A stretch of 48,130 nucleotides of DNA, the filler included, from Jimgerdemannia flammicorona (lineage: Eukaryota): the NCBI GenBank assembly GCA_003990765.1. It is 2 parts of 2 records of this genome, joined end to end, with 100 filler letters (N's around TTAATTAATTAA, not from the genome) between each part and the next. Parts side by side here need not be neighbours in the genome. Positions count along the whole stretch, not along the records: positions 1 to 24,017 come from RBNJ01001032.1; 1 more part is not named here. One strand, 5' to 3'. Below, piece by piece: positions 1 to 43,165 of the stretch. A model generated the notes under the pieces. It was not told where the DNA came from and did no database searches. It saw only the letters and a list, made by a program, of their open reading frames with translations. The translations under genes and the position numbers were made by a program. The first letter of the stretch is position 1. Every line of letters begins with the position of its first letter.

Positions 1-1164
1 TTTTAACAGACTCAATGTCTTTTGGAAGGGAACCTAGACTATATAGGCCAAAACTCTCCCCCACCACCTATCAAGCACTGCCCCCCTATTAACCTAGGCT
101 AGCTATTGTCCAGCAGCTCAACCATGCTAGGCACAGCAGGGCCTATATTGGCCCACACCTCATTCTGCATACCATGCTCTCTCTACCACTAGGGAGAACT
201 CAGCCATATACCAATGATCGAAAACACATGCCTGAGACTCCAATGTATATATAAGGCCATACCTGAGCCAAATAGAATAGCCCCTGCCACTTCAAAGAGA
301 ATGACAGATAAAGAAAAAACTCTCATCAAAGTACAACATGGTGAGTAGGACCTGGTTCTCTCAATTGAGATGAGTAAAGAATTTATATATAAGGTGAGAA
401 GAGACTCCCAATACTCTACTACTCAAGCTTGTAGGTCTTGATCACATTGCCATATCAGCTCTTAGTTCCAGTTGAGTATAGCCAAGACATCTGAAATGGG
501 TAGCCTCAGACCCTCTGACCCCCCCTAATGACTAGAGCCCAATCTGCCAAATCACCAAAAGAAGTCAAAAGTGATATCTACTATCTAACTATACTGCACC
601 AATCAAAAAACCCCACTGAAGCAGCACCCGCCCCAGCCCCAATAACTGCCCCCAGCCTAGCACCCTACTGGCTCACTGTTATTGCCCTTTCTCTTATCTG
701 TAATGGCTATCTCTCCTCCCATCTTGATAACACCCAAAAAGCAGTCACTTATATCAGAACTGTACTCGCCAGAAAGCTTGCCAAAGCCAGAAGACTCCAC
801 CACAGATACTGAGGACCTATGTAATTTACACTGAACACTTGATGCCCAAGGTCAGCCAACTTCCTATATAGCCTAAGACATATTAAGACAGCACCTTGTT
901 GGTGACAGTAAAAGAAAGAAGGCATCATACCAAAATAGATATACTCTAGATATAGCCAAAGATACCAGAAACCATGAAAAAGTAGAGAAGACACTGATCT
1001 GATACCAATAAAGGGGTAACTCATCACCATTGCCTCTCTCCTACTGCTCTACAACAGGTATAACAAACTAACCCAAGATAGAGGGGGTAATAATTGTGGA
1101 AAGTAGACCTAGAAGGTTGTCTACCAAACTATTATGACCAGTAAGATAGTGGAGAAAGGGGCTG
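1..1164 (-). mobile_element. SINE-like non-autonomous retroelement, copy 1 (poly-A end cut by the window edge)
   Basis: Colinear with copies at 3557-4743, 17927-19121 and 27982-29137 (shared ...ttggaagggaacctagactatataggccaaaa... and terminal ...gtaagatagtggagaaaggggctg). It ends at the same point as the other copies and abuts the last codons of the Fanzor2 relic. Confidence 0.85.
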
Positions 1165-2598
1165 AGAACCAAGGCTCCATCAAGCAATACCTACAAGAAG
1201 ATCCCATGGGCTCTATTCTCATTCCTATCCATCACTATGCTATATCTTCAGCAATTGTATACCTCAGACCCTCCTATCATCTATATGTTTCCACACCAGC
1301 TACAGGTCTTTGATGTATAGGCTTCATTTTGGACAATAACATGGATACACAGCTTCTCTGCCTTGGAGATCAGATATTAATGAAAATAAAAGTACCTCCA
1401 TTGGAGCATCTGATAAACTATGCAAGATCTAATCTTCCTTGTCTTGTAGTTAACCATCTGAGATACCTCAAATAGAGATATGACAATGACATCAAACTCA
1501 CATATGAAGAATGCAACTATCTTCTTATAAATCTCAGATTGAAGACATAAGAGTCCTCATTATATATAGGCTGCTACTATATTGAGTTGCTGAGCTTTTT
1601 TCTGCTTATGCTTCAAGTTGAATGATGCTAATTTATCTTTCTTAGAAATGAGGTTGTTCATATGTTAGTAGAGGCAAATGATATGTCCAATATCATACTG
1701 TCCAATTTTGTCTACACCTTTGTAGGAGAGTACCAAGTAAATAGTATACAAATACTTAGATCAATAGCAAAGCATGAATATCAACTTGGGTTTTGTAGAC
1801 CTACTTTTATATCTCATAAATTCAGGAAAATGTCTAATCACCAGTCTTCTATGAATATGTTAGCTTGCAATTACTTGTAATTTTGTATAGTAATGGCTAT
1901 TTATTGTTCTTGTACTTCTTCTCAAAATGAAAAGACCAGAGTATATATTGGTCTTCATGTGTTGAAATGAGAGACTTGTGATGTTTAGAGTATAATAATA
2001 TATTATAAATATATAAATATAAAATATAAAAGCAATCTCAGGGATTCTTTGCAAAATTCTAAGTATAGATAATGATAGTCTGATCTGATTCCTTATGAGT
2101 TCAAAAGGATAGATGATGTGCTGGAGTTTCTGATATATACTGCATGTTGTACTTAATGTTCTCATCTCTTATTACTAATATCTTGTCAATAGCTTCATCA
2201 GGAATATTGGCAGGTACTTGTCTGAAACAACCTCAAAGTAGTATCTCGATATGAACAACTATCCTACAGAACTTATGCTTACTCCAGACTGCTGTCTTCT
2301 GAAGTTTGGTATTCTCCTAGTCATCTCCATCTTTCCCAGATCTCACATCATTATAGAGCTAGTATTTTTCCTATATAGGCTATACCTTGACCCATATTTA
2401 TTATGCTGGTCTGATCTGATAATTCTTGCTATAATATTAGTGATGACAATTTCAGTTAATAATAATATTAAAGGCAAATCTTGCCAAACCCAGCCATTAC
2501 TTGAGAAGCTTCTTCTGAGGGTGATTTGGATAAATCTTGACCTTTAATATATAATTGAAAATATCTTTTGAGCACTGTTACTTATTGTATACTATCAT
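1165..2598 (-). pseudogene. Fanzor2/TnpB RNA-guided nuclease, degenerate (many stops, small frameshifts)
   Basis: Manual minus-strand translation gives ILKVKIYPNHPQKKLLK*WLGLARFAFN (TnpB N-terminal motif, about 2467-2552), QVPANIPDEAI and LSF*THKESDQTI. RuvC-I relic AIDLSICILFTWYSP (cf. AIDPGxRT) lies at about 1725-1768. Further on come RuvC-II FDVIVISLFEVSQMV, zinc finger NEAYTSKTCSWCG...VYNC*RY, and RuvC-III MDRNENRAHGIFL (cf. DRDxNGARxI). Start is approximate. Confidence 0.9.
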
Positions 2599-3244
2599 TG
2601 CCTTTGGTTTTGTTATGTATTTTTTGCACCTTATAGCACTCTTGTTAATAATAAGCAGCTTGTCTTCTCTGTATGTAACAGATGAAGATAGTATTGATAA
2701 CAAAGATATCCTCAGTGAGCTCCTGCTCATCAGAGGTCAACTCATTGAAGAGAACCATGAGTTTTGTAGAATAGAAGAAGAATATATGTTGGATGAGATT
2801 GAAGGAAAAACAACAGAATCAGTCTTAGTGGATAACTACAATCTTTAAGACAATTTCTCTACTTATGTATTCTAATAGAGTCTTAAGCCCTGGGCACTTG
2901 AAGTTAACACTAGAGCTGATATTACTGAGAAGCTCATAATTCAGGAATCAGGAGTGGAGGAGTTCCTTCTATCACTCAAGGTTGTCTTTTTGTTTGGTAC
3001 TTGATATATATATATAGAGATACTCTTTCAGAGAGAGAAAGGAGGAGGAGATAGAGGCAGAGACAGAGGCAGAGGTATTGCCAACATCATCAGAGATTAA
3101 TTCAGGAAAAAGGGAAGAAATGTCATAGAGGTGAATATCAGAGGGGGATATCTTGGCAGTAATCTTTTCTTGTTTGAGCCAGTGGCATAAGGTGTCTGAT
3201 GATACCCTAAGCTTCTTGGTTGCCTGATATGCAGACAGATGCAT
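2582..3244 (-). pseudogene. tnpA: IS607-family TnpA serine recombinase, degenerate (221 codons in one frame with internal stops)
   Basis: MHLSAYQATKKLRVSSDTLCHWLKQEKITAKISPSDIHLYD matches the MerR-like HTH. It is followed by YIYISSTKQKDNLE**, SNISSSVNFKCPGLKTLL (cf. DIGSGLNFKRxGL), IVVIH*D*FCCFSF (cf. VVxHxDRLxRFGF) and EQELTEDIFVINTIFICYIQRR. The stops are explained by CGA>TGA and CAG>TAG type transitions. Confidence 0.9.
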
Positions 3245-3556
3245 ATGAAGAGAAAAGGAATAAGAATGTCTATTTGCACAATGGTATACATACAATGTTT
3301 ACTTATATGTACTCACCTAGCCCTCTTAGTCAGATCTTCATTAAATGCAAAGAAAGGTAGACTTTGTTTCTTGTGACTTGTTAAGTATTATTAAGTAGAA
3401 TTATCATCAAGTATTCCTAAGTAACCAATTTCAATAGTTGGCACTAGTCATATGAACCTCCAAATTGGGAACATTTAAGCAACCTAAAAAACTTTCTTCA
3501 ATAAAATAAAAACTTATAAAAGTCAAAATTTGCCCATATGTTACATATGAATTACT

Positions 3557-4743
3557 TTTTTTTTTTTTATTTAACGGACTCTATGTCCCACGGATTTTTA
3601 TTGGAAGGGAACCTAGACTATATAGGCCAAAACCCTCCCCCACCACCCATCAAGCACTGCCCCCCCCATTAACCTAGGCTAGCTATTGTCCAGCAGCTCG
3701 ACCATGCCAGGTGTAGCAGGGCAAAGTAGCCCATACCTCATTCTACACACCATACTCTCCCTACCACTAGGGGAAACTCAGCCATATGCCAACAACCGAA
3801 AGTGCATGCCTGAGAACCCAATATATGTACAAGGTCATGCCCAAGCTGAATAGAATAGCCTCTGCCACCCCAAAAAGGATGACAGGCAAAGAAAAAACCC
3901 TCATCAAAGTACAATACGGTGAGTAGGGCCTGGTTCTCCCAGTTGAGGTGAGTAGAGGACTTATACGTGAGGTGGGAGAAGACCCCCAATACCCCACTAC
4001 TCAAGCCTGTGGGCCTTGATCATATTGCCATATCAGCTTCCAGTTCCAGTTGAGTGCAGTCAAGATGCCTGAAATGGGTAGCCTTGGGCCCCCCGACCCC
4101 CTCTGACGACCGGGGCCTAACCCCACGAATCGCCAAAAGAAGCCAAGAGTGACACCTACCACCTAACCACACCGCACCAATCAAAAGGCCCCACTGAAGT
4201 AGTACCCGCCCCAGCCCCGACAACCACCCCTAGCCTGGCACCCTACTGGTTCACTGTAATCACCCTTCCTCCTATCTGTGATGGCCATCTCTCCTCCCAT
4301 CCTGACATCACCCAAAAAACAGTCACCTATGCCAGAACCATGTTTGCCAAGAAGCTTGCCAAAGCCAGAGGGCCCCACCACAGACACCGAGGACCTACAG
4401 GTAATCTATACTGAGTACTTGATGCCCAAGATCGACTGACTCCCTATGTAGTCCAAGATACACCAAGACAACTCCTTGTTGGCGATGGCAAAAGGAAGAA
4501 GGTGCCGCACCAAAATGGGTATACCCCAGATGTAGCTGAAGGCACCAGAATCCATGAAAAAGTAGAAGAAGTACCAATCTGACACCGATAAAGGGGCAAC
4601 TCATCACTATTGCCCTCCTCTCACTATGCTCCTACAGGCATAGCAAACCAACCCAAGGTAGAGGGAGTAATATTAAGGAAAAGGGGACTTGGAAGGTTGC
4701 CTACCAAACCTTGTGACCAGTAAGGTAGCGGAGAAAGGAGCTG
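3557..4743 (-). mobile_element. SINE-like non-autonomous retroelement, copy 2
   Basis: Poly-T at the left end (poly-A on the minus strand, preceded by AATAAA). Exact 15-bp TSD tacatatgaattact at 3542-3556 and 4744-4758. Confidence 0.9.
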
Positions 4744-5949
4744 TACATATGAATTACTGCCTTTGTTATAGAGTTGGGTTTTCATATGGTCGATTTGGTA
4801 TCGTCACCATCCCTGTGATGCACTTTATGCTTAAAGTGATGCTTGTCTGATAACCTACTTCTCCAGTCTTGGAATCTGTGGGTCTGTCTGCTTTTATTAT
4901 CATAAACTACGTAAAGGTCACCACATAAATATTATGGAAGGGCCTCCAGGATGTGTGTAGAACTGTTTGGCTTGTGTAGAGTTCTAAGGACCAACCAGTC
5001 AGTCCAACACATCTGAATCAACCCCAGCAACATGCTGGTAATTCACAACTTGGTTCAAAAGTGGTAACTGCAATCTGAGTTGGTGATTGAAAATGGTATG
5101 CAATAAGGACTAGGTTGTCTAATATGAGATTTCGAATAGGCAAATGTCACAAATTATTAAGTCATTTTAATTATCCTGGTAAACAATAATGAAACAAGAG
5201 ATATTATTCTTGAAAATTATGTTCAAAATAGTCCCAGAAGCGACCATACTTCATAGTGGCAGCTGCAATACCAATCTCTTTGTATTTTAAATATTGAATC
5301 TGCTAAAACCACATTCTCTCATAAATATTCGCAAGCACCGATCTGTGTTGAGGAACCATAATAATATTAAGAAAATACTAATACAAATAAGGTCTACGAC
5401 CAAATAGAATCTTGTCATGATGGATGAGACTGCTACGATGGAGATTTTCCAAAACGTCTGTTGGGATTTTTACTAGAGGTGGGGGATTGTTTATTGAGTA
5501 AATAATGATGACGTCACCATTGATCAGACAAGCCACTTGTGCATATTTCAACAATGTCGATAGTCTGGATCCAATACGCTTGGTGAACTGTCGACAGCGA
5601 TCATTGGCGTGATATTTCCGGCTTGAACGCTTTCACCACAAGAGTTGTGCAATTCTTTTTTTGGACTGCTGGTTGCACCTGCTCCGACGAACTCCATCTT
5701 TGAAAGTTCGTCGAATTATTCTATTGTCATATTGGGTGCTAATTATATGACCGTACTATTCTGACTACTCTTCCTTTCTACCATTTCGATAATTCCGTCC
5801 GCTCTCTACGCCTGTGCCATATTATTGGCCTCATTTTACGATTCCAGCATAACTATACTGATTCTGACAATACAATAGAGTCTAATGTCTGGTAGCGTGT
5901 CGCGCTTAGCTCCACGTGCAGTGGCTGATAATTAATTGTTCCAAACGTA

Positions 5950-7240
5950 TTCAGCCTCCCCCGCGTCGCATGACCTGCCTCCCGCGCCACACAATCTACC
6001 CGTCTACAATGCCACCCGCCGCTTGAAAGAACGCTCATTAATGAAAGTGTACCGTATCAGCTGGGAATCGGTAATATTAGTTAAAGGGGCTTGGCACACC
6101 TTGACTCCCAGCCCCGGCGTGCTCTACAACTGGAACTCCACAGACCCCTCCACCTCCCATGACTGTGTTTCTGACCACAACACCAACGACTTCCCTCCCC
6201 AGCGACCTCTTCGACCCCTCCTCCTTCCACACACCTCTCCCTCGCCGATGCAACCACGGGTGGTGCCATGTTCACAAACCTAGACCACCTCATTGAAGAA
6301 ACAGACGAGACTCTTGCCATAACCCTGCCCCGCCAGAAATAACTGCTCTACTGCAGTCTTCCGTCCAACTCGTGCGTCATGCTCCAATAGCCACAACCAG
6401 CACAACTGTTCTAGTCCCGCATCAAGACAGGTTCTTGCCTGCATCCCGCGACACCTTTCTTTCCCCTCCTGCATTCGATATAGGCGTTTGACCTCAGGCG
6501 CCCCGGCGAACTCACATCGTCGCAAGTACCTGTTCGACGATGGTGCGCTGGACTCCGGAAAGGGAGGGAAGAGAGAGGAAGTGTTGCGCTGGCGACATGG
6601 GTGTCCAGTTTTTGAGGCCTGGAAGAATGTTTTATGGGAACCAGAACCTTATGAGCAAGCCGAGCCGGCAAGGGAGAGAGGGGTAAAAGGGATGGAGGGA
6701 GAAAGGGAGGGCAAGGAGGAAGGACGAGGAATGGAAAGTTAAGGTTGTATGTATTGCGTGACATATATTGGTTTGTTGTGTGTCGGGTGAGATGGCAGAA
6801 CATGACCTCTATTATATTCTTATTCATTCCCTTATGCCATTCAATCACTCATGCGCAAGACAATTCACAAGGTTAACTATCGCAATTGCACCGTCATCAG
6901 GCTGATAGAGGCATTCAACGTCACTGCCACCGACAACACTGTCATCACGTCCTTTTACGAGTTGAGGCTTTGGACGTGTCGTGGTATGTGTGGTTAGATG
7001 GACTGTGGTGATTTCGCTTGGTGCGGGACTCAGTATTATTATTTCCCTCTTCTTCTCGATGACTGTTTTTACTTCTTCCTGAAACTTCTGTCTTATCTAT
7101 ATCATCCTTCTTTCCTGCTATGCCGCAGATTGTCAACTCCAACCACATCCTGTGGTCCAACAACTGGGAGGCAGATAGGGAGACACACGAAGTACTGGAA
7201 GCTATTAGACCTGTTTGCGGAGATGGATGATCGACGAATG
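5950..7240 (+). other. Possible spliced gene or pseudogene remnant, product unknown
   Basis: CpG-retaining, GC-richer segment with exon-like pieces bounded by AG/GT, e.g. about 6901-6983 (LIEAFNVTATDNTVITSFYELRLWTCR, then GTATGT) and about 7129-7230. I could not assemble a complete model or recognise a family. Confidence 0.25.
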
Positions 7241-7354
7241 TGTTGGAGTAGGATGGGTTCCATGGTGAAATGCTGAGGTGATTTTCTTACATTTGTGAAA
7301 TATTGTTTTCTCATTTGAAATTTTGTTATTTCTTTTAGGTGTTAAGTGTGGTGC

Positions 7355-7410
<56 letters not shown>

Positions 7411-7741: not shown

Positions 7742-10700
7742 TCAACGACTCCCGCATCCAACGAACACAAAGGGCGCCCATAATTCAGGCTCCGAACGGC
7801 ATTCTTCCATTACCGTCAACATTGCACGCTGCAAAGCGGTCGCATAATCCATCTCACGGTCAAAAAGCACGACCTTCCAATATTCCACCATGATCTTCTT
7901 AGACCAGAGGTCACTCACATTCCAAAGTGATACGACAACCCGAGGTACTCCAGCGTCGCGAAACGCCTTAGTGAACCCATTTACTCCCTCCATCGTGTTC
8001 CATCCTTTGCCAGTACCACAGGCGCTGAGAACGACCTGCTTGACATTGCTGAGGGGTAGGTTGCATATTTCCTTGGCCCATAATAGATCTTGAAATGGTT
8101 TGAATTCTTGGACGCTATGTTTTTCGGGGCTCAACACAAGAGCTCCCCTGAGCGTGTTACCCTCACCAATGGGTTCGAACACGTCCAGGCTGTCGACGGT
8201 GCCATGGCATGCAAAATGTACGTAATCCGCGGAGATAATGGATTCCACCACCATGGTTTTTGTTGCGGTCGCTCTTGTGAGCAGGACATTCGACGAGGTG
8301 ACCGATGCCTGCTGATCGGAAGACTTGGATGAAGCCAAGGAGAAGAGGCCGTGCACCATCATGGCTTCGATCTCAGCGTGGTGGAGATTGTCGTATCGGA
8401 GAGGGAATTTGAATTCGTGGTATGGCGGGATGATAGGGTTACCCACAACCAAGGAACGGAGAATCGTTTGTGCTGGCGGTTGTGACATCGCCTGACGTAT
8501 CGTCTGATGCAGGGACTTTAGAGACGTAGAAATGGAAACGGCATATCTCTCCAACAAGTATTGATTCTTGGGCTTATCGAACAAGGCCGCGAAGGGGACT
8601 GTAGCGAGATTTCCCGAGGGGACGATAATTAGTCGTTTCGATAGCCGTCCTCCTTCCGATTGCAGGTATCCCTCAATAGGCCGGATGAGAACGTTGTACA
8701 GTTGACTCAGAGAGTTAAGGCAATCTTCCTTGTTATCATCGGCGGAACCGGAATTTCCTCTCAGGAGCGAATTTCCGAAGGAAAATATAACGCTCTGTAG
8801 CGTTTTTTTGAGTGTTTTCTGGACCTTAATAAATCGAAATTGAATTGGCTCGCCAGGTGATGGAGGGATAATCCAACAATGAAGCGGACTGTCGTGGTCA
8901 TCATACGTTCGGCTTCCTCCGCCCCAATAGACGACAATATAGGCCCCTTCGGATTGCGCGTCTTCTCGGTATTGTTGGATATGCGCGGCGTAGGAATTGA
9001 GAACGTCATCGGATTCACTATCTTTACCCAATGCCTCGAGATGCCGATATTTTTCGGAGAGAACCAGCGCCTCCTCTATTTGCTTTCGGTGAACCAAAAT
9101 ATCGACATGCAGTGATCCTATCACCGGGTTGGGGTACCAGCAACCAGACTCAAACAAAGATTTATCGAACTGTGCGTAGAGTCTCTTCTCGATAAACAAT
9201 CCTTTTTGCAAGACAGTGTCCACGAACGGTTGCGAGTAAAGCTTGCACCGGAGGATGGAGACAAGTGCCCTCCCGTATAAAATTCGTAACTCATCGTAAT
9301 CATTGGTGTCGGTTGACTCGGTGGCGACCGATAATATGTCAAGCCTCTCAGCCATCAACGACTTCCGCTTTGCCTCGGGTAACGCCGGCAATGCTTGTGA
9401 GATCATTTGAAAAAGAGCGACCTTGTTAATGCTGGATTGAATGTCTGTAATAAGATCACCCCTGTTTCCGAAGTTCACCGCGATTTCTTTTGCTTTGTCG
9501 TATTCCCCAATTGCAAAACCCACTGTCTCAAGTGTCTTCCGCAGATCCTGCCTTTGGAATTCCTGGTGAACGAGCTTGCTGTATATATTCCCCAGAGCTC
9601 TCCGCGTTCGAAATACTATTATAAAATGCAAAGGGTCGTCCAGCTCCAAACAGCACTCCAATACCTGACTATACCATCTGACTGCCTCGTCCCATCGTCC
9701 CAAACGAAGGCTTGCCTTCCCAAGGTTCATCAACGCCACCGGTCTGTGGCTGAGTCTCTCCGCTTCTGGCAACAACGAAACCGGGATTTTTTCGAGAGCA
9801 ATATAATGTTCATAAGACTCCCGAACATGCTCCAAGTTGTATTCGCATTCCGCCATACTTTTGAACAGATTGAACAAACAGATTTGCCGTGCTCTATCGT
9901 GGGTCGCTTCAGTTCCATTATTGCCTGCGGGTTCATCAAGCATAGTTTCCATTTGTTCATTGTCTTGGTTGAACCATTCCAAGACTTGGCGGAAGGTCTC
10001 CAAAGCTTTCTCAAAATTGCCAAGGACGTGTTGTGATTCTCCAACGTTAAAGTAAAGTTCCCCTGCCCGCCCAGGTAGACCACAACCCACCATAAGGGCT
10101 TTGCCAAACTCCATAATCTTCGTCTCAATTGCGAAGTAAATGTGTAGGATATTGAGGGGACGATCCTTCATATCGATGAATGCAGTCTCCACTGTGGTGA
10201 TAAATCGATGAAGGTTGACAATTAATGTATCCTGCAAAGCTTCGCCCTCAAATAACTGCGATAATTCAACTGAACGGAGAAGCCTCTGGAGAGTATCAGC
10301 GAAATCCTGCATCGCGCTGCGCAGAGCAATTATGCACACGCTCTCCGCAGCCAAACGAGTTTGGAGTGAAATGTCAGCGTTTCCATCAAAGGAGGCGAGT
10401 GTGGTGTCAACGTCGTCCAGCCGAGATTTCAATTGCTCCAAGGCAGTGGCGCAGTTTACCGCAACCGAGTCCATTGTTGTTGCTTTCCTCGCTTCTTTCA
10501 CTTGATTGTAAATGCTCGTGTGCAAGTCGCGGGATTTCGTTTCTTCCGCTGTTGGTGGGAAATTCCAATAGAGCCATGCGCGATGCGGCATTTGTTCAGA
10601 TTGGGCGTCGTCTTGAAAGCTTTGTTTCACTGTTAAGGTTCGAGTATTTGTTATGGTCATGATTGAAGTGAAAGTATTAAACCTGACATAATCAACTAAT

Positions 10701-11330
10701 GCCACGTACCTTTTTCCACAGCCGCTCTGAATGTCTCCAACGAGCATTGGTTCATTATTGCTGCCAATTCGGTGGATTGTTGCGAAATAAATTCCGTCGG
10801 CCACCACGTCGATCTTAGTTGCGGAAACTGCTGTTTCAGCACTTCGCTATACGCTTCGCTATCCACAAATCCTGCGGCATGTCCACCGTCACTGGTCGAC
10901 GAAATTATGGGGTTTTGATCGTTTTGGATGCATTCTCGAAGCTTTCCCCAGTAGACTCTCATCTGGTGCCTACAGAGCAATTCGCCAGCCCATTGCACGA
11001 TCCAGTCGAGGATATCAACACCTTCGAGTTTTTGTTCAGCTGCGCGTTGTAGAGGAAAATCATCGCCGCAAGGCTTGCCTATTTCCCAAGGTGCGTTCCA
11101 ATATAATGTGTAATCTTCGAGGGCTTTCTCAATACCAAAAAGAAAAAGCGGACATAGTCATCGTGAGTGACTGAGTAACAGAGTGCATTCGCATCAGCTT
11201 GCACAGAACGCGTACCTGTCGGTTCAAACCCTAAGTGTCTAACAACTAAATTCTTGAGTTCAAGTGGTTCGAACGCGAAGGACGTTGGTTGAGGTTCCTC
11301 ACCATGTTCTTGATCTTGAAGCACGGACAT
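7742..11330 (-). CDS. TPR-CHAT (caspase-like clan CD cysteine protease), about 1135-1138 aa, 3 exons: 11330-11216, 11123(or 11114)-10710, 10629-7742
   Basis: CHAT motifs LIIVPSGNLATVPFAAL, YVHFACHG (catalytic His), VVLSACGTG (catalytic Cys), GVPRVVVSLWNVSD and WAPFVFVG. TPR-like repeats include GELYFNVGESQHVLGNFEKALETF and ALMNLGKASLRLGRWDEAVRWY. Two phase-1 GT-AG introns (GTACGC..AAG; GTACGT..TAACAG) join ORFs 11079-11369, 10696-10998 and 7742-10807 in frame. Confidence 0.92.
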
Positions 11331-15869: not shown

Positions 15870-18800
15870 GGTATGACGGGAACCCGAATGGGCTCCTCAC
15901 CCTCTGCATAAGGAGCACCCACTCTTATCCCCTCAACTTGCTAGCTCACTATAGACACTTAGTGAAATCTACCAGACCTATTCTCCTCCAGTTCACTAGT
16001 AATGTCAACACTTTTCAGGCAATCTGACTCTACTGCCCTGCCTATATTCAGATCCTGGCCATCTTCAATAACCTCTTGACCACTTATGTTGGGAAGTCTA
16101 AGTAATATTCTAAATACCACAACTTAAGCAGTCAATATATATTCAACACTATTACCTATTTAGCCAGGAAGATATATTGACCACTCCACTCCAGAAGAAT
16201 ATTTCTCTACTCAACCAGCCACTGCTTCTACTATCTCTGAAGCAACAGAGAGTCATATACCAAGAAATAGATTCCTAGATAGCAAACTACCTCTCCTACT
16301 AGAATAACTATTTCAATTATATCTCCACCTACTATTCCTCTACTTAATATCAGAGTCTTATATTTATTCCAATTCAGCTTAGCATCAGAGTATCTCTCAT
16401 ACCATTCCACTACTCTCTATAGTACTACTATGTCTTTTACAGAGCTCAGTCTAATCACTATATTATCAGCAAAGGCTCTTACTTTCTAATTTACTTCCAA
16501 AATATTCAACCCCCCATCTTGTATCTAATCCTATATAATAAAAGCTCCAGGGAGAGAGTATAAAAAATTAATAACAGCAGATCCCCTTATATCACTCTTC
16601 TGCTCAGAGAGAATATAATTCTCCTATACTTATTTACCAAAATAGTTATTTAGCTCTCATCCAACAGACCGATCAAAGATTGCTAAAATCCAGAGAGAAC
16701 TCCCATATACTTTAATACTCTCTCCAGCTATACTCACTAGATCTTATTATATTCTTTTTCTAATCCAGAAATACAAACTGACCATTTACTTCTATAGTAT
16801 ATTCATATACTTATATTATCTCAACTTACTTCTGATGAATTCTCTCTACTTAATCTCCAGTACTTACTGAGTCACTTCTTGTAACCTAACTACTAGTATC
16901 TTTGTAACTAGCTTGTAATCTATATCCAGAAGTATAATTGGCCTCCAGTTCTTTCACTTCTCTTTTTTTCTCTTATTCTTATATAATAAAGCAATAAGAC
17001 TCAGATATTGCCTCCTAATCTATATTCCTGAGTTAATAATCTTATCACACATCTATGTCATCTTCTTTAAAACTAACTCAACATCTGCTATCCTCTTCCA
17101 GAAATCTCACAGTAGACTATCCTCTCTCAGAGCTATTCTGAGAATCATTATTATCAATACCCTATATATCTTCTCTTCTCAGACAGATACTTCAAGATCA
17201 CCTAAGCTCTCTGCTAGGTCCAGATACCAATTCTCCAAATGTTGTTCAATATCCAGCATATCCTTTCTATCTTTCTCTTTATTCTATAGTTGTCCTCACT
17301 ATGAACTCAATTGACTCAAGATCACCAGAGTTCTAACTACTATCTCTCCTATCTTATCTAGTACTCTTTCCCACCAATATCTCACCCTCTTTATCTGAAA
17401 GAGTCTCAATAAGAACTTTTAGATCTCTTTTTCTCTTTTATATCATATCACTATAGCTGAGCTATCATATTCTTTACCCATAAATCTTTCTCCTGCCTCA
17501 GTATCTCCTTCAGCTCCTCTACTTCATATCAGATCTACTGTACTCTCCAATCTTTCTCTTTCCTATCATTCAATAGATCAGCTCATGTTAATAATAACTT
17601 CTCTAATCTCTGAGAAGCTCACCTTAACCTATTCTTCTTCTGAGCATCTCTCACCCTCTCTACCTTCCTCTAGAACTATTGAGCAACTAATTTCAGATAT
17701 TACTATTGATCTTCAATCTCCAGCCTCTTTGCCCTCTAACTAAGAATCCTGGAGCTAATGTCTACTATCTATGTATTCTATAAAGAAGACTCTCTCAGTA
17801 AGGAGATTTAGGTACTAATGTCTAGATCCTTCTCCACTACTCCTGAATCTTCCACAATCTATCAGACTCTAATGATCTAACCATGGGTACCAAACTATCT
17901 TCAAAGATTTCCAAACATTCTCTCCTCTTTTTTTTTTTTTTTATTTTACAGACTCAGAGTTCTACAGATTTTTATTGAAAGAGAACCTAGACTATATAGG
18001 CCAAAATCCTCCCCCACCACCCATCAAGCACTGCTCCCCCATTAACCTAGACTAACTATTATCCAGCAGCTTGACTATACTAGATACAGCAGGGTCTATA
18101 TTGGCCCATATCTCATTCTGTATACTATGTTCTCCCTACTACCAGGGAGAACCCAGCCATATACCAATGACCAAAAGTATATACCCAAGACCCCAATATA
18201 TATATAAGGCTATATCTGAGTCAAATAGAATAGCCTCTGTCACCCTAAAGAGAATGACAGACAAAGAAAAAACTCTCATCAAAGTATATTATGGTGGATA
18301 GAGTCTAGTTCTCCCAGATGAGATAAGTAGAGAACTTATATATGAGGTGGGAGGAGACCTCCAATACTTCACTACTCAAGTCTATAGGCCTTGATCAGAT
18401 TGCTATATCAGCTCTCAGTTCCAGTTGAGTGTAGTCAAGATGTCTGAAATAGATAGCCTTGAGCCCCCCAACTCTCCCCAATGACTGAGACCCAATCTGC
18501 TAAATTATCAAAAGAAGCTGAGAGTGATACCTACTACCTAACTACTCCACACCAATCAAAAGGCCCCACTGAAGCAGTATCTGCCCCAGCCCTAATGACC
18601 ACCCCCAGCCTGATACCTTACTGATTTACTGTAATTGCCCTTCTACCTATCTATCTACAACAACCATCTCCCCTCCTATCCTGACAATATCTAAAAAACA
18701 GTCATCTATGCCAGAACCATGCTCACCAGAAAGCTCACCAAAGCCAGAGAGCCTCACTACAGACACTGAGGACCTGCAGGTAACTTACACTGAGTACTTA

Positions 18801-20690
18801 ATGTCTAAAATCAGCTGACTCCTTATGTAACCCATAATGTACCAAGACAATATCTTATTAGCTATAGCAAATAGAAGAAGGCACTATACTAAAATAAGTA
18901 TACTCTAGATGTAGCTGAAGGTACTAGAATCTACAAAAAAGTAGAGAAGACACCAATCTAATACTGATAAATAGGCAACTCAATATTATTGCCCTCCTCT
19001 CACTATACTCCTATAGACACAGCAAACCAACCTGAGGTAGAGGGAGTAATAATAGGGGAAAGAGAACTTGGGAGATCACTTACCAAACCTTGTGACTGGT
19101 AAGGTAGCAGTGAAAAGAGTACAAACATTCTCTCCTTAGTACTCTACAGTCAGGATCCAGTCAATTCTAGAATCCAATCCTGCTACCCAGTAGATATAAA
19201 CCCTGTGATCTCCATCTAAGTTATCCTGTATTCACTAGAGAACCCAGCTTTTTAACCTCTTCTCAGTCTTCTATTCTCCTACTCTTATTAGCCATCTCCT
19301 TCCCTCCATCAGTCCTATCTAACTATCTATCATATATTATGTTAAAGTCTTCACTCAAGTAGTTAATTTCAGTCTCTACTATAGTACCTATATCTTATAG
19401 ACCTCTTATCCACTCCACCTGCTTCCTCCTTTCTGCTGAACAATAATAGGACCCAATAGTTAAAGAGCTTTAGTCTGGTCTCCTCTATACTCTCTATATT
19501 ACTCTACTCCCCTAGTGTCTAATATCTCCAATATCTCTCTTGTTCTTCTAAATCAATATGTCTATCTGACCCTACCAAACTGCTATCTCTCTCCATTCCT
19601 TTGTCCAATTTAGCATATTCAAGTTCTCATCACATCTAATATTCTATAGTAAAAACAGATTAGCATCTAACCTCTTTAATCAGTAGAAAATATTCTACTA
19701 TCTCACTGCACCTCATAATCTATTGATATTTAAAAAAAAAAAATTAGTTATACTATTCATATTGAATAATATTTTTTGAAGACCAGTCACCTACTTTATA
19801 ATTCCATGCTTATTATATCACTAACAATATTCAGATTTCTCTCTACCTTAAGCTCATCTACCTCTCTCTACTGAGTATCTAGTACTTTCAAGATCTTCTA
19901 ATAGTTCTCACTATCTATAGACTCTATATTAGACTAGTACTTCTTATATACTATCTGTCACTTCTTCAATCTCTTCTTAGATTTCCACAGATAAGTCATA
20001 TAGTCATTTATAATGACCAGAAGTACTGCCTCCCTGTTATCATCTACCTTATATTTCTCTGCCCCTAATAAGTCCACCAATAGCTTATTTCAAAACTTCT
20101 ATACTACCTCTTCTTCTTACAGGATCTCACTTTAATGTCTTTTACTAATTACCTAAAAATCTACCTCATCTAACTCATCTGCAGCAATATTCATCAATGC
20201 CTTCTATAACTACCTTTTCTCTCCTATAGTCTCATTAATATCTAGAACTATCTCCTGCTCTCCAACCCCCTGATCTCTCTCAGCATTTGTTCTTACTGAC
20301 TTATCTCAGTTCTCCTCTATCACATCCTACAGCTTATCAGTTCTCCCCCCTCCTGTGAGCACCCCATACTATACTTGGGCCTCCTTTATCATCACCTCAT
20401 TCTCTATCACCACACTCTGTCTAGAGTCTCCACTCTTTTCCAGAGTTACTATGAGAGTCTCTCTCTTCTTTTCTGCTCAAGTACTCACCCTTGATCTACC
20501 TCTTTCAGTAGTATTTTTCTTCTCTACTCTCTCTTCCAGATTCACCAATAAGTCTTTCTGATACTGCCTCTCTTATGCTCTCTCTCAGGCAGCCTAATCT
20601 AGTTATACTTACTTGCTATTTATAATCTTTATCACTGTCTTAGCCTTGAACTTCTTCTAGAATAGCTGTCTCTTCTCCACTACTTCAGCC
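15870..20690 (-). mobile_element. L1/Tx1-type LINE relic (APE endonuclease + RT), heavily mutated, apparently truncated at both ends
   Basis: Minus-strand relic motifs: NWRPIILLDIDYKLVTKIL (about 16895-16950), FSLSRRVI*GDLLLLIFYTLSLELLL (cf. RGVRQGDPLSP...EPL, about 16540-16612), and KVRAFADN (YADD-like, about 16462-16486). Endonuclease relics: SEDFN (about 19341-19356), SRIDWIL (about 19151-19171) and PWLDH (SDH-like, about 17873-17887). Boundaries are approximate. Confidence 0.85.
17927..19121 (-). mobile_element. SINE-like retroelement, copy 3, inserted in the LINE endonuclease domain
   Basis: Poly-T left end. Exact 15-bp TSD caaacattctctcct at 17912-17926 and 19122-19136. It separates the SRID and SDH-like motifs of the LINE. 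Confidence 0.9.
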
Positions 20691-23600
20691 TAGTACTCTG
20701 AATGGATATAATTTATATATCTAAATGAGATTTAATTCAGATTCATTATATGATAGATTCAAATTAACTTAAATTAGTTCTATGATCTGATCTGAATTGA
20801 TCTGGATTGATCCAGATCACTCAAAATCTTTGATAATATTACCCTTTCTTTATCTAATATTCCTTTTAGTTTCTCCTGCAATATTATAAACAAATAAATA
20901 GCAGCTCTTAATTATATATTGGTCTACTCATTTTTTTATCTAATGATTATCAAAAGAGAGAATATTTGAGATAGAAAAGTACTCTCTACTAATAATATTA
21001 AATTCTTTCTCATATGGATAGTACACAAGCTACTCATTGAGAGCTAAAGTAGTAATAGTAATAGCAATAGCAATATTAATAAGGATGAGAGAGAATTCTG
21101 ACAATAATTCACAGTGATCCTTCAGACTTCAGAATTTATAGATCTCACAGCTATATATATAGTAGCCTTTTTAGAGCAGCCAATAGTAGATATAGGTTGC
21201 CTTTTTGCTACTATATTTAAATTTCCACAGTATGGATTAAGTTCATTTCATGCTTTTTCTCTTTTTCTTAGAGTCTATAGCTCTATAACAAGATCTGCCA
21301 ACTTTATTTATAATATCTAGTTAAGATAAAAAAAGGCTGGAGAATGTTGTAAGGTATATTTTTGATGGCTGAGCTGTTGAGTCAATATATTATATAGTAG
21401 AGATCTCAAAAGGATTAGAAGTAAGTCTTTATGAGTAATCTTATATAACTTATCTATATGTAACTTATTTGCATACAACTCATTCTTATACTCTTTTTCT
21501 GAATACTCATCTATATTTTATTTAACTCTATTTTTATGTATTCTTCTCTAAAAATACCTATATAATACTCACATATAATCTGTCTACATATTTAACTTAG
21601 CTCACTATTTAGATTAAGGCTTAGTTCTACTACAGAGGAGAATTCAAAGTTCTCCAAGTTTAGCCATGTCAAGTATCTGATCAAATAGAGAAGTTTAAGG
21701 GTAAGTTATTCAGCATAAGTAATACTAGTATTACTATTAAGACTTAGAGATCTACATTTAAATTAAAGTCAATCATTCTTAATTAAGAAGCCCATTGGTC
21801 TGCTGGAGTACTTAATGATAAAGAGAACTATATTATTATTAATAAATATAGTAAAGTTGTTGTGATGGTAGTAAGGAATCTCTATAGTGATAAGCTTTAT
21901 TACTATATTAATAAAATTTACAAGGATTATATCAAATACTAGATAGTAGAAAAGAGGGGGTATAAAAAGTAAAGAGGGGGAGTTTGGATGGAAATTAGAT
22001 ATACTGCAACATTGGCAAAGGATGGATACTCTGGAGTTTTTTTCTAAAATCTTCTACATTCATCTCCTTATTTTTGAGATTTTCTTTACTAATCATTATT
22101 GTTAAATTTTCAGAGATATATAGAATTCTATACTCTTATTAGAACTTTAGAAGTACTATTGAAGAATAAACTGTATGTAAGCATAACATAGTTTGTATAG
22201 TAATAGTGGCTATGATCTGGGGTTCTTTGAGCAGATTACTAGACTGAACAATAGGCCAGCTTAGTGATGCAGCTATATATATATTCTTGATACAATTTAG
22301 TATGCTATATGAGGTGAGGAGCTTGGCTTTTTTTTTTTTTTATATGGTTTAAGAGTTTCTATCTCCTGTATGTGAAAAGGAAGGATTTGATCAAATACTA
22401 TCTATTTTGATAGATTTTCAAGCCAGAGCTCTCAGGGCTGGATGAAGAATAGGTATTCTCTAACACTGTCTGGTAATATGAGGTCCTGGGCCAAGGGTTC
22501 ACCCAACTACATATATACTTATATCACATTGAAGTATATCAGATGCAATATTTCTCTATCTATATATAGACAATAATATTACTCTAGTAATGTTTTATAT
22601 TTCAGAAAAAAAGGGCCTAACTTAAGAGAACAATAGTAGTATCTGATACAACCTCACTTATAATTTCAGGGTTCTGTTTATAGTCAACATAGCTGTTCTA
22701 TTCTAACTATATGACCTTTATAGTACTATTATCTTTAAAGAGAGCTCAGATACTACAGTTATTATACTTATAATAAATAATAGGCTCATCAAGGCCTAAG
22801 ACTAACAGATGAAGTAGTTTTATAAAGGTTAGGCTAGGTGATCTTTTGTAAAAGTTAGGCAGTCTTTTGTGAGGATTAGGTAGTCTTTTATAAAAGTTAG
22901 GTTGTCTTTTATGAGAGTTAGACAGCCAGACACCTCTTTTGTTTTGTTGTACTAATTTTTAGCTTTTAGCTTTTTGCTGGGCTCTATTGGTCTCTTGGTT
23001 TTACTTTATAGTACTGCTAGTACAGTACCACAGTATAGGACTAGAGTATCTGCAGAGCCTAAATCTACACTGGAGTCTGATCTGCACTAGAGTCTATCTG
23101 CTTAAAGTTGCTTCTCATAGTAGATCATTGGATTACAAATTCTGCATACTCTCTCTAACCCATATCTCTATATCAACTTACAGCTTAGGGCTACCCTATA
23201 CTACTAGCAGAGGGCTGCAAATTTTGTATACTCTCTCTACTAACTCCACTGACTCCCACTCTATATTTGTTTTACAGTACTAGTTTTAGCTTTTGTCAGG
23301 CTTTTCTAACTCCTTAGCCCTACTTTGTGGTGATTAGTATAGTACTATAGTATAGAGCCAGAGTGCTTGTAGGGCTTAAATCTACATTAAAGTCTGATCT
23401 GTACTAGAGTCTGATTGCTTGAAAATACTTCTTACAGTGGATCATTGAGCTGCAAATTCTGTATACTTTCTCTGACCTAGACTTCTGTACCAACTTATAG
23501 CTTAGAGTCACTTCTTGCTACTAGTAAAGGGTCACAAATTTTATATACTCTCTCTACCAACTCTGCTGACTCCTACCAATCTCACTAACCCCACTAACTC

Positions 23601-24017: not shown

Positions 24018-24117
24018 NNNNNNNNNNNNNNNNNNNNNNNNNNNNNNNNNNNNNNNNNNNNTTAATTAATTAANNNNNNNNNNNNNNNNNNNNNNNNNNN
24101 NNNNNNNNNNNNNNNNN
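24018..24117. other. Assembly spacer: 44 N + TTAATTAATTAA + 44 N
   Basis: 100-nt symmetric gap containing a six-frame-stop linker; an artificial contig join. Confidence 0.97.
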
Positions 24118-27903: not shown

Positions 27904-29332
27904 TAGTGCTCGGAATGAATCGAGGTCCAATTCAATTCAAGTTTTGATTTGAACCTTAATTTTCAAATTCAATAATTCTATTTTTTTTGTTTTACGGACT
28001 CATGTCCTGCGGATTTTTATTGGAAGGGAACCTAGACTATATAGGCCAAAACCCTCCCCCACCACCCACCAATAACCTAGGCTAGTTATTGTCCAGCAGC
28101 TTGACCATGCCAGGCATAGCAGGGCCGAAAAGGCCTGCACCTCATTTTGTGCACCATGCTCTCTCTACTACCAGGGGAAACCCAACCATACGCCAATGAC
28201 TGAAAGCACACCCAACATATGTACAAGGCCACACCCGAGCCAAATAGAATAGCCCCTGCCACCCCAAAGAGAATGATAGGTAAAGAAAAAACCCTTGTCA
28301 AAGCACAATATGGTGGGTAGGGCCTAGTTCTCCCAGTCGAGATGAGTAAAGGAGTTATACGTGAGGTGGGAGGAAACCCCCAATACCCCACTACTCAAGC
28401 CTGCGGGCCTCGATCATGTTGCCATATCAGTTCCCAGTTCTAGTTGAGTGTAGCCAAGATGCCTAAAATGGGTAGCCTCGGGCCTCCCGACCCCCCCTGA
28501 TGACTGGGGCCCAACCTCGCTGACTGCCAAAAGAAGCCGATAGTGACACCTACCACCTAACCATGCTGCACCAATCAAAAGGCCCCACCAAAGCAGCACC
28601 TGCCCCAGCCCTGACGACTGCCCCCAGTCTGGTATCCTACTGGTTCACCATTATTATCCTTTCTCCTATCTGTGATGGCCATCTCCCCTTCCATCCCAAC
28701 AACACTCGAAAAACAGTCACATATGCCAGAACCATGCTCATCGGGAAGCTCGCCAAAGCCAGAGGGCCCCACCATAGGTACTGAGGACCTGCAAGTAACC
28801 TACACTGAGCACTTGATGCCCAAGGTTGGCCGACTCTCTACATAGCCTGAGATACACCAAGACAACACCTTGTTGGTGATGGCAAAAGGAAGAAGGCACT
28901 GCACCAAAACGGGTATACCCCAGACATAGCCGAAGACACCAGAATCTGCGAAAAAGTGGAGGAAGCACCAATCCAACACCAATAAAGGGGCAACTCATTA
29001 CCATTGCCCTCCTCCCACTATGCCCTTACAGATACAGCAAACCAACCCGAGATAGAGGGGGTAATATTAGGGGAAAGGAGACTCGGAAGATCGCCTACCA
29101 AACCTTGTAGCTGGTAAGATAGCAGAGAAAGGAGCTGATTCAATAATTCTATGAAAACATCCAAATTTGATAAAATTTAGCTTATTAGATTTTTTTTTAT
29201 CTAGCATAATAAGTATTGTTAAATTTGGTTGAGTTATTACATTTCAAAGTTCAACTCTTAATTTGGACCTCAATTTGATTTGAATCAAATTGAATCAATC
29301 CCAATTTGATTCAATTTATTTGGGGAGCACTA
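27904..29332. mobile_element. hAT-type MITE interrupted by SINE-like copy 4
   Basis: Termini tagtgctc...gagcacta. 8-bp TSD gctgaagg (27896-27903) / gctgaaga (29333-29340), 7 of 8 matching. Internal sequence is similar to the MITE at 39256-39615. Confidence 0.8.
27982..29137 (-). mobile_element. SINE-like retroelement, copy 4
   Basis: Poly-T left end. Exact 15-bp TSD attcaataattctat at 27967-27981 and 29138-29152. Confidence 0.9.
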
Positions 29333-31058
29333 GCTGAAGATATGTGTAAACAATAAATTATATAAACTGTAGCTATTAACATTATTATCTATAAAGAGTA
29401 GATATATATTTTGACTAAAACTATATAAATTACATTATAACTATTTCAATTTTATTTTATTTTATTTTTTTGTAAAATTTTCTACTTTTGTAATAAATTT
29501 ATAAATAAAGTTAATTTTTTTTTATATTTATCAAGAATAAGTAAGAGCTTTTGACTAAAATATAAACTATATATTTTTTTATCTGTAATAAGATTTAAAA
29601 GATTTTAAAATAAGATAATAAACTATATTATATATTGATAATTTTAATTTTAATTCCTTATAATAAAGACTAAATATCTCTAATTTAAAATTAATAATAG
29701 TAAATAGTTTTAGATTTTTTTTTTTTTAAAAAAAATATATATATATCTTTACTAAATAAATAGATTCTTAAGTTTATATTTTAACAAAGTAAACTAACTA
29801 TTTATATCTCTCTCTCATACTTTTAATAAAGTCTAATATTAGAGCTAAAAGTCAACTGATATTGTGATGTAGCTATATGAGGCACAATTTTTCAATATAA
29901 GATAATTATATGCGACTTTTATGGTTCTGGTGATTCGGATCATCACACGGCTGTCACATGACTTTGTCGACTTTGTAGATTTCCTCAAGCACCTTTTTCT
30001 TGGTATCCGACCAACGGGCCAATACAAAGAAAAGGATGCTTGAGGAGAGGAGGCCTATGTGGTAAATGCTCTGCAGAGGCATATGTCCATTTTCAAATAT
30101 TCTCTAAGCACCTATCTGATTCTGTATCAAATGACTGATGATATATATATATAGGACTCGTGCCGGGAAGCACGCATCACAACATTCATCCAAATGGGTG
30201 AATAATGTATCCTCTAGGGTATCAAGATGTCTATTTCCATCACCGTCTGAAATCCGACAATACCGAAGCATATAGTGGTGGCGAGGAACCAGGTATCTGA
30301 CGGTTGAACGCCAGTCGTCCCGATCTCGCGTCTGTCGACATCCCAGCGGACCAACATGCTCTTCTACTAGCTCCACGCAGAATTCGATAAACGCTCTATG
30401 TCGGACGGTCATGGCGCACATCGCCCTGGTGAATTTTCGGGACGGGTTTCGGGAGCTAGTCCCCAACTTCCGGCATGAGAGAGCACATGCAATTTGCAAT
30501 ATGCAGTATGTCAACTATCTTATCAATTACCTTTCCCTTGCAGTTGATCAAGTGATTTTATCTAAACCTCTCCGTCACCCTCTCCATTCCGATTGGTAGG
30601 GTGTAAAGAATGATTTATTCTCTCCTAGATCATTTTCGAGAGCCATCCGAAAATCACACAATGACACCCTGTGGATTACGCAACAAGGATGAAAGGTGTG
30701 GGGAGATCGTCGGTCGATAAAACGGCAAGACAATAGACCGAAGGATGCCCGTCACAGGAAAATAAAATATTATTCGCACCAACTTTCATTCCGACACATC
30801 CCCAAGCACAAGGAACGAATTAATTTGGTGTACAAAGCAAAATGGGAACGTGCAGGAACAAGATTATTACAATTATATCTAGTAGAAAACCAGCGGCATG
30901 CCACGCGGTTTAATGCAGTTGTTCTTTCCTGGTCCGCCACAAAATGGTTTAGCAGGAAAAAGCATAGATGCAAAAAGAAGGTTCAACAATAACTGAAGAT
31001 GGAAGTTTCAAAGGTCCATCGGCCAAACGACCTCCCTCTTTTCCAACACGAGACGCAC

Positions 31059-38359: not shown

Positions 38360-38390
<31 letters not shown>

Positions 38391-43079: not shown

Positions 43080-43165
43080 GAGGAACTACTCAGGGTGCAC
43101 CAGAAGCGACGACGGAATCCGAGAAGGGATGGGAACACTGGGGGAGAACTATGCCAGGGGGAAGT

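Follow-up and report, generated by a model that had tools for sequence, protein, structure and literature searches.

A decayed and truncated fragment of an IS607-type TnpA-Fanzor2 transposon in a repeat of Jimgerdemannia flammicorona

RESULTS

An insert with two decayed, overlapping genes interrupts a host repeat

We analyzed a stretch of 48,130 nucleotides (nt), filler included, from the fungus Jimgerdemannia flammicorona (GenBank assembly GCA_003990765.1), which joins parts of two records and whose positions 1 to 24,017 come from RBNJ01001032.1; this whole stretch is called the window below. Close to its start, where a fossil IS607 TnpA-Fanzor2 element had been predicted at 1165..3320, lies a 2,377-bp insert on the minus strand that actually reaches to position 3541 and thus spans 1165-3541. 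The insert is a decayed, truncated fragment of an IS607-type transposon with remnants of a tnpA gene and, on the same strand and overlapping it, of a downstream tnpB-type gene (Fanzor2), which is the gene order of IS607 elements. It interrupts one copy (A) of a host repeat, whose second copy (B) lies beside it. The features, all on the minus strand, are as follows.

1..1164 (plus 3542-3555), minus strand: host repeat copy A, unclassified and without a Pfam domain
1165..3541, minus strand: the whole insert interrupting copy A, by collinearity with uninterrupted copy B
1165..3090, minus strand: Fanzor2 pseudogene, 640 codons in three frame segments with 34 in-frame stops
3090->~1775, 1771->1724 and 1724->1165, minus strand: the Fanzor2 frame segments, reading from a conserved Met at 3090
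1165..1181, minus strand: right-end RNA remnant, with GATGGA from the closing helix (5' strand) and CCTTGGTTCT from hairpin H1 (5' arm)
1221-1229, minus strand: RuvC-III DRN, from DRD
1242-1253, minus strand: second zinc finger pair, C*RY, with Cys>Tyr
1293-1304, minus strand: first zinc finger pair, CSWC, intact
1323-1325, minus strand: alternative Glu, kept in the window (the E in ..EAYTSKTC..)
1720..1775, minus strand: frame-breaking deletions flanking RuvC-I, one of net 7 nt (near 1771) and one of 1 nt (near 1722)
1760-1762, minus strand: RuvC-I Asp, within D-L-S at 1762-1754, from DPG by P>L and G>S transitions
2468..3244, minus strand: tnpA pseudogene, 258 codons with 7 premature stops
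2468..3090, minus strand: stretch read in two frames in intact relatives (tnpA catalytic domain and Fanzor N-terminal extension), both decayed here
3010-2999, minus strand: YISS, remnant of the serine-recombinase Ser motif in the tnpA frame
3244-3161, minus strand: MerR-type helix-turn-helix (HTH) of tnpA in the pseudogene frame
3245..3438, minus strand: left end and 5' leader with four decayed direct repeats
3440..3541, minus strand: about 102 nt at the 5' side of the insert without detectable counterpart in related elements
3580..4757, minus strand: host repeat copy B, with the uninterrupted ("empty") site at 4743/4744

The limits of the insert are fixed at 1165 and 3541 because copy B is the uninterrupted version of the same site: positions 1-1164 align with 3580-4743, and positions 3542-3555 with 4744-4757. 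Within 1165-3541, no stop-to-stop open reading frame (ORF) is longer than 108 amino acids (aa), and the element is therefore hidden from the ORF track, as had been proposed. Reading through the stops recovers the anticipated hallmarks of both proteins. When TnpA residues 1-221 were compared with X at the stops, 7 of 112 candidates matched, the best of them with an E value of 2.2e-71 and 60% identity at 100% coverage over the 221 residues. All seven carry the Pfam Resolvase domain (PF00239) and six the MerR domain (PF00376), so that the MerR-HTH plus serine-recombinase architecture of IS607 TnpA is present by way of the matched proteins; the X-masked TnpA frame of the window itself gave no direct Pfam match, and the TnpA protein P0004 scored 69.4 bits for Resolvase. 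Aligned with its relatives, the TnpA frame departs from them mostly by replacements of the C>T/G>A type (Arg to Cys, His, or stop and Gly to Ser or Asp). For the C-terminal 178 codons of the Fanzor frame, 2,755 matches were found at E≤1e-3 among 1.84 billion representatives, including 673 at ≤1e-10 and 6 at ≤1e-30, with a best value of 1.1e-57. The X-masked frames also matched the Pfam families HTH_OrfB_IS605 (25.7 bits; cut-off, 21) and Cas12f1-like_TNB (43 bits; cut-off, 26.3). The E values and Pfam scores of the two proteins exclude chance, and the restored proteins match IS607-type TnpA proteins and TnpB/Fanzor families.

The Fanzor2 core starts at about 2577 and comprises about 470 codons. 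A protein of about 478 codons had been expected, which describes this core alone; the complete reading has 640 codons in the window, and the ORF of the family encodes 624-648 aa. The small frameshifts suspected near 1710-1770 correspond to the two deletions flanking RuvC-I, and RuvC I-III and the zinc finger are all in place (1760-1762, 1323-1325, 1293-1304/1242-1253, and 1221-1229). An alignment of 51 relatives shows D436, G438, E582, R615, and D616 to be invariant, with P437 and the four zinc finger cysteines nearly so; the alternative RuvC-II glutamate, E582, is thus present in 51 of 51. According to a phmmer alignment, the canonical glutamate position corresponds to the first P of IPPF, which is a G in the solved protein 9b0l; this placement also leans on what we take to be the TnpB motif. 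The DPG motif, the alternative RuvC-II glutamate, the C4 zinc finger, and the RD of RuvC-III that distinguish Fanzor2 were therefore all found. DPG together with the alternative glutamate is given as the signature that defines the Fanzor clade in the relevant part of Yoon et al. (2023; PMC10711439).

The intact Fanzor of a related locus (L004, 636 aa) was used for structural comparison. Its best match among solved sequences is 9b0l, the mimivirus Fanzor2 (3.8e-25; next, 1.6e-10). An AlphaFold model computed from a 51-row alignment (mean predicted local distance difference test [pLDDT], 74.6; predicted template-modeling score [pTM], 0.73) again has 9b0l as its best match (Foldseek, 1.2e-22; TM, 0.66 on the target), with Cas12f (5.5e-15) and TnpB ranking after it and the Fanzor1 protein SpuFz at 3.3e-06 (TM, 0.31). 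The L004 protein is thus nearer to solved Fanzor2 than to Fanzor1, TnpB, or Cas12f. Its look-alikes in the Atlas are mostly Nucleocytoviricota clusters.

Relatives define the family and the right end that the window copy lacks

The closest Fanzor proteins were aligned and used to scan metagenome contigs, where 295 stretches matched and 63 loci, all from soil metagenomes, were confirmed; a scan of viral contigs matched 100 stretches, 4 of which were confirmed. TnpA is encoded beside Fanzor in 34 of the 67 loci, and L004 and L006 are examples with an intact Fanzor ORF. The viral loci (L064-L067) lie on contigs of up to 172 kb, which is giant-virus-sized, and hold TnpA plus Fanzor pairs with 28-50% identity to the query; the window element is much closer to the soil eukaryotic contigs than to them. 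One soil locus, L005, has an AT-rich insertion (GTATGA...TTTTAG, at about 1019-1108) that splits the codons ...TAR/DNI..., whereas L024 is continuous at this point (about 1823) and its protein reads on. Judged by its sequence, the insertion would be an intron of the spliceosomal type, acquired by a transposon gene whose origin is bacterial, and the GT...AG intron of L005, set against the continuous L024, therefore indicates that the family lives in eukaryotic nuclei. L045-L047 look multiply interrupted like L005. Long ORFs that begin with the TnpA HTH and go on in the Fanzor frame occur in L016 (323-2278) and L024 (779-2440); these are either frameshifted decaying copies or natural HTH-Fanzor fusions. 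No Pfam family was found in the flanking ORFs of L008 and L010 or in two window ORFs, and L010 8863-9309 presumably resembles the C terminus of a Ty1/copia Pol, an impression of ours.

Similarity of the insert to these relatives breaks off at 1165, between the H1 arm and its loop. BLAST alignments to 16 loci all end at the last base of the insert, and the loci remain similar among themselves for 81 nt further before unrelated flanks begin. A conserved right end, ...AATCCATCC(G/A), is shared by 26 loci, and the termini of the family element read ACCGTT...AATCCATCCG. The window copy thus lacks the last 81 nt of the family right end. Its Fanzor2 reading runs to the very end of the insert, with the last 2 codons and the stop absent; the frame is stopless there, and the stop of the nearest relatives lies 5 nt beyond the break.

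The missing tail belongs to a structured region of about 98 nt, of which the window keeps 17 nt. Single-sequence folds of 17 distinct right ends share one plan, in which a closing helix (GAUGGA/UCCAUC) surrounds two hairpins. The hairpin sequences vary between relatives, and the closing helix is uninformative alone because it never varies. In an alignment of 14 sequences, 98.5% of the cells pair and 6 of the 20 pairs change on both sides; none of 500 shuffles reached the observed value in four of five measures and 2 of 500 did in the fifth, and slid controls of the structure paired at 30-49%. RNAalifold on the raw MAFFT alignment recovered the closing helix alone, the hairpins being defined from the single-sequence folds. 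A covariance model (R1), built from the 14-sequence alignment with a manually set structure, matched 33 times in the loci but had no match at E≤1 in the window. The alignment of these 33 matches, which is fitted to the model and leans towards it, has 13 of 20 pairs compensatory and 95.4% of the cells paired, values equaled by 0 of 500 shuffles. No Rfam match was obtained in the window. By analogy with TnpB and Fanzor systems, as treated in parts of the literature (PMC10711439, PMC10530073, and PMC10432273), this right-end RNA would be the guide (omega or re) RNA. The suggestion that the 3' end might fold into an omega-RNA has thus gained covariation support in the relatives, but the window copy keeps 17 nt only and does not carry a guide RNA at its right end. 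Nor is the element "fully reconstructable," as had been thought, since the absent 81 nt include most of the candidate omega-RNA scaffold and the right-end repeats.

Decay of the insert is CpG directed and restricted to repeats

To read the mutation spectrum, we used the three closest relatives at the DNA level, L001, L004, and L010, and counted changes at the 1,315 columns in which two or more of these share a base; a consensus in which the AT-rich L002 group prevails is misleading for this purpose and was not used. Changes in the window amount to 331 of the 1,315 columns (C>T, 127; G>A, 113; T>C, 15; A>G, 16; transversions, 60). C>T and G>A together make up 240 of the 331 differences (73%), which bears out the expected type of damage, and control relatives, compared with the other rows, show 86-135 differences without such an excess. 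CpG sites are mutated most often (71 of 108), followed by CpA (28 of 72) and TpG (19 of 63), with 17-29% in other contexts. The observed-to-expected ratio of CpG (CpG o/e) is as low as 0.01 for the insert; the flanking repeat copies have 0.06 and 0.26, and three gene-like ORFs have 1.03-1.06. Transition decay is also evident in the host repeat around the insert: copies A and B are 79.8% identical, with 210 transitions and 25 transversions between them, and the interrupted copy A is more mutated than copy B (148 versus 62). The C-to-T decay is therefore repeat restricted and CpG directed. AT-rich repeat blocks of the window (1-4757, 21001-23000, 29001-30000, and 38001-39500) have CpG o/e values of 0.00-0.47.

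Such a CpG-biased pattern is typical of methylated or otherwise silenced repeats of the kind produced by repeat-induced point mutation (RIP), and it fits methylation-driven decay or a basidiomycete-type, RIP-like process. Classical RIP was considered and rejected (TpA/ApT, 0.88; (CpA+TpG)/(ApC+GpT), 1.48).

The fragment appears to begin outside the left end and was probably carried in by the host

Compared with the empty site, the borders of the insert show zero target-site duplication and zero host bases lost, and a repeat search found zero terminal inverted repeats. Helitron-type ends and ends of transposons with terminal inverted repeats and target-site duplications were rejected, being absent there. 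The junctions read TGTA/ACAT and TTCT/CAGC and the empty site TGTA/CAGC. None of ACCG, CC, and GG occurs at the junctions or the empty site, and no dinucleotide of the kind expected of IS607 fits both junctions and the empty site without an extra base. At the 5' junction of the insert (3535-3549), the sequence CATATGT-T-ACATATG contains CATATG twice, 3 nt apart; the insert contributes one of these copies and the host repeat the other, which could be fortuitous or a relic of how the ends were joined.

Relatives again helped to place the left end. Similarity among five independent relatives begins at ACCGT, with unrelated sequence before it (ACCGTT in L006, L009, L045, and L046; ACCGTC in L010). 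The best window counterpart is ACTATT at 3438-3433, where two transitions have turned CG into TA. A transition-tolerant alignment with L009 starts exactly at ACTATT and scores 49, compared with 30.7±5.1 for shuffles (maximum, 50.5 in 300), and the alignment with L006 scores 40, compared with 31.1±5.6; similarity to L010 begins at 3394. The four leader repeats of the window (TACTTAG, TACTTGA, TACTTAA, and TACTTAA) resemble the TGCTTA repeats of the relatives. Short direct repeats near both ends of IS607 elements are putative TnpA binding sites. The window copy has four decayed ones at its presumptive left end, and those that relatives have at the right end (TAGCAATGCTTAG region) are absent from the window together with the tail. 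The family left end therefore appears to lie about 102 nt inside the insert.

The outer 102 nt (3440-3541) would then be former flanking DNA of a donor site, which we hold with moderate confidence. When compared with the host repeat, the rest of the window, and the loci, they gave best scores of 44-48, no better than expected for the search space. Circular permutation, with the 102 nt being the absent right-end tail, was rejected by transition-tolerant alignment (scores of 20-26 versus shuffle means of 24-26).

The ends of the relatives (ACCG... and ...ATCCG) contain CC, which is GG on the other strand, and together suggest an ACCG target, with CC (GG on the opposite strand) or CG as the exchanged dinucleotide. 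The dinucleotide feature of IS607 is thus present in the relatives (five left ends with ACCGT and 26 right ends with ATCC(G/A)) and fails for the window copy only: a GG-type dinucleotide, as originally proposed, is compatible with the ends of the family but is not seen at the window junctions.

Taken together, we consider it likely that the insert is a dead piece of an IS607-type transposon resident in eukaryotes, which was carried in by a host process and then decayed in place. An intact element would be excised and integrated by its TnpA, a MerR-HTH serine recombinase, at an ACCG-type site without duplications, and its Fanzor2, guided by the right-end RNA, would cut vacated sites, as TnpB and Fanzor literature leads us to infer. 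The window copy keeps both genes but stops 81 nt short of the right end, and it would start about 102 nt before the left end. A copy with one border beyond the left end and the other short of the right end, at a site that is not a family target, was probably not placed by its own transposase; most likely it arrived as a piece of DNA through a host process, for example, break repair or ectopic copying. It would later have decayed where it lay, along with the repeats around it, through C-to-T change biased to CpG. The identity of the insert, its borders, the absence of the right end, and the mutation spectrum are direct results; its route of arrival, the cause of the mutations, and the activities of the encoded proteins are our reading of them. 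The original view that the element was mobile in this nucleus thus finds no backing at the borders, where neither canonical end nor an ACCG target occurs, and the copy looks like a transplanted fragment.

Several observations weigh against this account. A seamless, duplication-free insertion is itself what a serine recombinase produces, and an aberrant TnpA event at pseudo-sites, or a subfamily with other ends, may likewise have left the borders seen. The assignment of the left end comes from modest alignments (z of about 3.6 for L009 and about 1.6 for L006), and L010 is the only near relative that has a left end. Finally, the (CpA+TpG)/(ApC+GpT) ratio given above misfits classical ascomycete RIP.

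One alternative is that a complete IS607 TnpA-Fanzor2 element transposed here canonically and then decayed, and could be fully rebuilt, omega-RNA included. Both genes are indeed present and alignable end to end, and the seamless borders without duplications or terminal inverted repeats are what IS607 predicts. However, the window copy lacks the 81-nt tail of 26 related loci, the RNA model has no match in the window, the Fanzor frame reaches the border of the insert before its terminal stop codon, and neither the junctions nor the empty site has an ACCG or CC motif, which makes this account very improbable.

Alternatively, TnpA may have acted aberrantly, either by forming a shifted circle through two pseudo-sites, one lying some 100 nt upstream of the left end and the other within H1, and integrating it at a noncanonical site, or by later deleting the right tail; in the latter variant, a canonical copy would have suffered a deletion between an internal pseudo-site and the true right-end core. 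The host repeat has neither lost nor duplicated a base at either junction, which is the hallmark of conservative site-specific recombination; the length of the insert (2,377 bp) is similar to that inferred for a full element (about 2,355 bp), and a deletion exactly to the border of element and host would be easier with a recombinase acting on the true core. Against this stand the absence of any dinucleotide common to junctions and empty site without an extra base, an empty site without ACCG, and the loss of the right-end binding repeats that a circle would need, and a later deletion leaves the extra 102 nt on the 5' side unexplained. We regard such an event as unlikely, if still the more credible of these two alternatives.

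A chimeric join of repeats in the draft assembly might also mimic an insertion, and this part of the genome is rich in repeats, with two N runs in the window (24018-24061 and 24074-24117). These runs are 20 kb away, however, the junctions share at most the 6-nt CATATG with neighboring sequence, far below assembler overlaps, and insert and flanks share the CpG depletion; an artifact is highly improbable. Carriage of a fragment by a host process accordingly is the account that we retain.

As to the host repeat, no Pfam family was found in six X-masked frames of 3569-7400. Its unit is bounded by T runs (A runs on the minus strand) at 3556-3568 and about 7358-7409. Copy A ends 14 nt past the insertion site, where it adjoins the A run of copy B, and resembles a 5'-truncated retroposed copy.

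The Fanzor2 N terminus is overprinted on tnpA

In intact relatives, the Fanzor ORF starts about 157 nt past the tnpA ATG in another frame and overlaps tnpA by about 600 nt, so that the first approximately 180 Fanzor codons are overprinted on tnpA. ORF maps place tnpA at 2-838 and Fanzor at 222-2138 (639 codons) in L004 and Fanzor at 760-2640 (627 codons) in L006. The resulting extension has the form PYW...SWFS...basic cluster, and tblastn aligns residues 46-413 of one relative (P0012) to window 2994->1855 in one frame with an E value of 2.8e-25. At least 100 residues precede the HTH in 32 of the 51 relatives; PxW aligns in 25 and WF in 27, and in the L004 model both motifs stand out as confidently predicted islands (pLDDT up to 93), the rest of the extension being disordered.

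Across 15 pairs from six loci, the apparent ratio of nonsynonymous to synonymous rates (dN/dS) ranged from 0.20 to 0.71 for the tnpA frame, from 0.36 to 0.90 for the Fanzor frame, and from 0.94 to 2.56 for the third one. When only tnpA was constrained in a simulation, the Fanzor-frame dN/dS came out at 1.38 (5-95%, 0.96-1.97), with a mean of 3.1 new stops per lineage. As a rough test, this points to selection on both overlapping frames. The two better-preserved copies, L006 (612-769) and L009 (863-1020), have zero ATG between the tnpA and Fanzor starts, and the base at -3 is a pyrimidine at the tnpA ATG and A at the Fanzor ATG in these and also in L010 and L014. This arrangement suggests that both proteins may be made from one transcript via leaky scanning. 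It is tempting to speculate that we are dealing with an IS607 lineage adapted to eukaryotes, with a Fanzor2 start selected in two frames (PYW helix, SWF strand, and a cluster resembling a nuclear localization signal), leaky scanning of a capped transcript, and pieces moved by the host; we offer this tentatively and would rate its chance as slightly short of even.

The remainder of the window

The window appears neither viral nor bacterial in character. It has few long ORFs and a low coding density and contains an A-tailed repeat; CpG o/e is 0.00-0.47 in repeats versus about 1.0 in genes. These traits speak against a viral or bacterial origin of the contig. A second copy of the element was not found within the window, nor was any rRNA or tRNA. 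An intact 1,034-aa ORF on the minus strand (7742-10846) encodes TPR repeats and a C-terminal CHAT domain (E, 2.6e-55), and its Atlas matches are mixed bacterial and cnidarian clusters. GC skew is -0.40 to -0.48 in four of the five kilobases of 16001-21000 and -0.28 in the other. From 41001 to 48130, GC skew reaches +0.31 and AT skew +0.50, with a switch of sign near 45 kb; this block has long overlapping ORFs, one with a sub-threshold RVT_1 match.

DISCUSSION

Among known systems, the family described here is most readily compared with ISvMimi of Acanthamoeba polyphaga mimivirus, whose Fanzor2 (ApmFz2 or ApmFNuc; 9b0l) is treated in part of PMC10530073. The two agree in the pairing of TnpA with Fanzor2 and in gene order, as well as in DPG, the alternative Glu, the zinc finger, the RD motif, and, for the relatives of the window copy, a structured right-end region. 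They differ in that the present family resides on eukaryotic contigs, has an intron in one copy, and encodes Fanzor proteins of 624-648 aa rather than 520 aa, and the window copy is dead and truncated; 9b0l and the L004 protein are only about 20% identical over the fold alignment. The idea that a new compact nuclease could be obtained is not supported, as the intact relatives exceed the 520-aa mimivirus chain in length.

The prototype IS607 was reportedly described from Helicobacter pylori by Kersulyte in 2000. It combines a serine recombinase that has an N-terminal HTH with short direct repeats at both ends, has neither terminal inverted repeats nor target-site duplications, and exchanges 2 identical bp (GG), according to the pertinent passages of Chen et al. 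(2018; PMC6188088). In contrast to the family here, it is bacterial and its TnpB has the canonical glutamate, and the window junctions carry no such dinucleotide. The Pro-Fanzor/Fanzor2 clade, as presented in part of Yoon et al. (PMC10711439), shares with the family DPG plus the alternative Glu, the link to IS607 TnpA, and a multistem right-end RNA.

Earlier publications have already reported fungal Fanzor2 and IS607-like sequences of eukaryotes, and the window copy is one more, broken member. Saito et al. (2023; PMC10432273) state in one passage that Fz2 occurs widely among fungi, and IS607-like sequences in yeasts and other eukaryotes were described between 2009 and 2013 (excerpts of Gilbert and Cordaux, PMC3673617, and Bao and Jurka, PMC3627910). 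Like the present copy, these are often single-copy or decayed IS607 derivatives, with Fanzor2 in fungal genomes. A census of 22,497 assemblies yielded 3,655 Fanzors, with Fanzor2 associated with IS607 among other transposons (passage in PMC10530073). Table 1 of Bao and Jurka (2013; PMC3627910) lists fungal Fanzor2 as single families in four yeasts, and the TnpA-linked cases that these authors name come from Acanthamoeba and viruses, whereas here tnpA is still attached. For the overprinting of Fanzor on tnpA, we found no paper describing the overlap, supplements aside: the main text of Yoon et al. (2023; PMC10711439) makes no mention of the Fanzor N terminus overlapping tnpA, and the "overlap" passages of PMC10432273 concern RNA with the ORF end, not tnpA.

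The window copy thus adds one dead tnpA-linked Fanzor2 fragment, which cannot itself yield a nuclease or a guide RNA. Its value is that of a pointer to 63 soil-metagenome loci, among which are intact Fanzor ORFs of 624-636 aa (L004 and L006), defined ends, and a covariation-supported RNA, and these natural intact relatives, not the fossil, are the sensible material for activity tests. The family provides a clean eukaryotic case for the origin of the Fanzor2 N-terminal extension and for the nuclear expression of two overlapping genes of bacterial origin.

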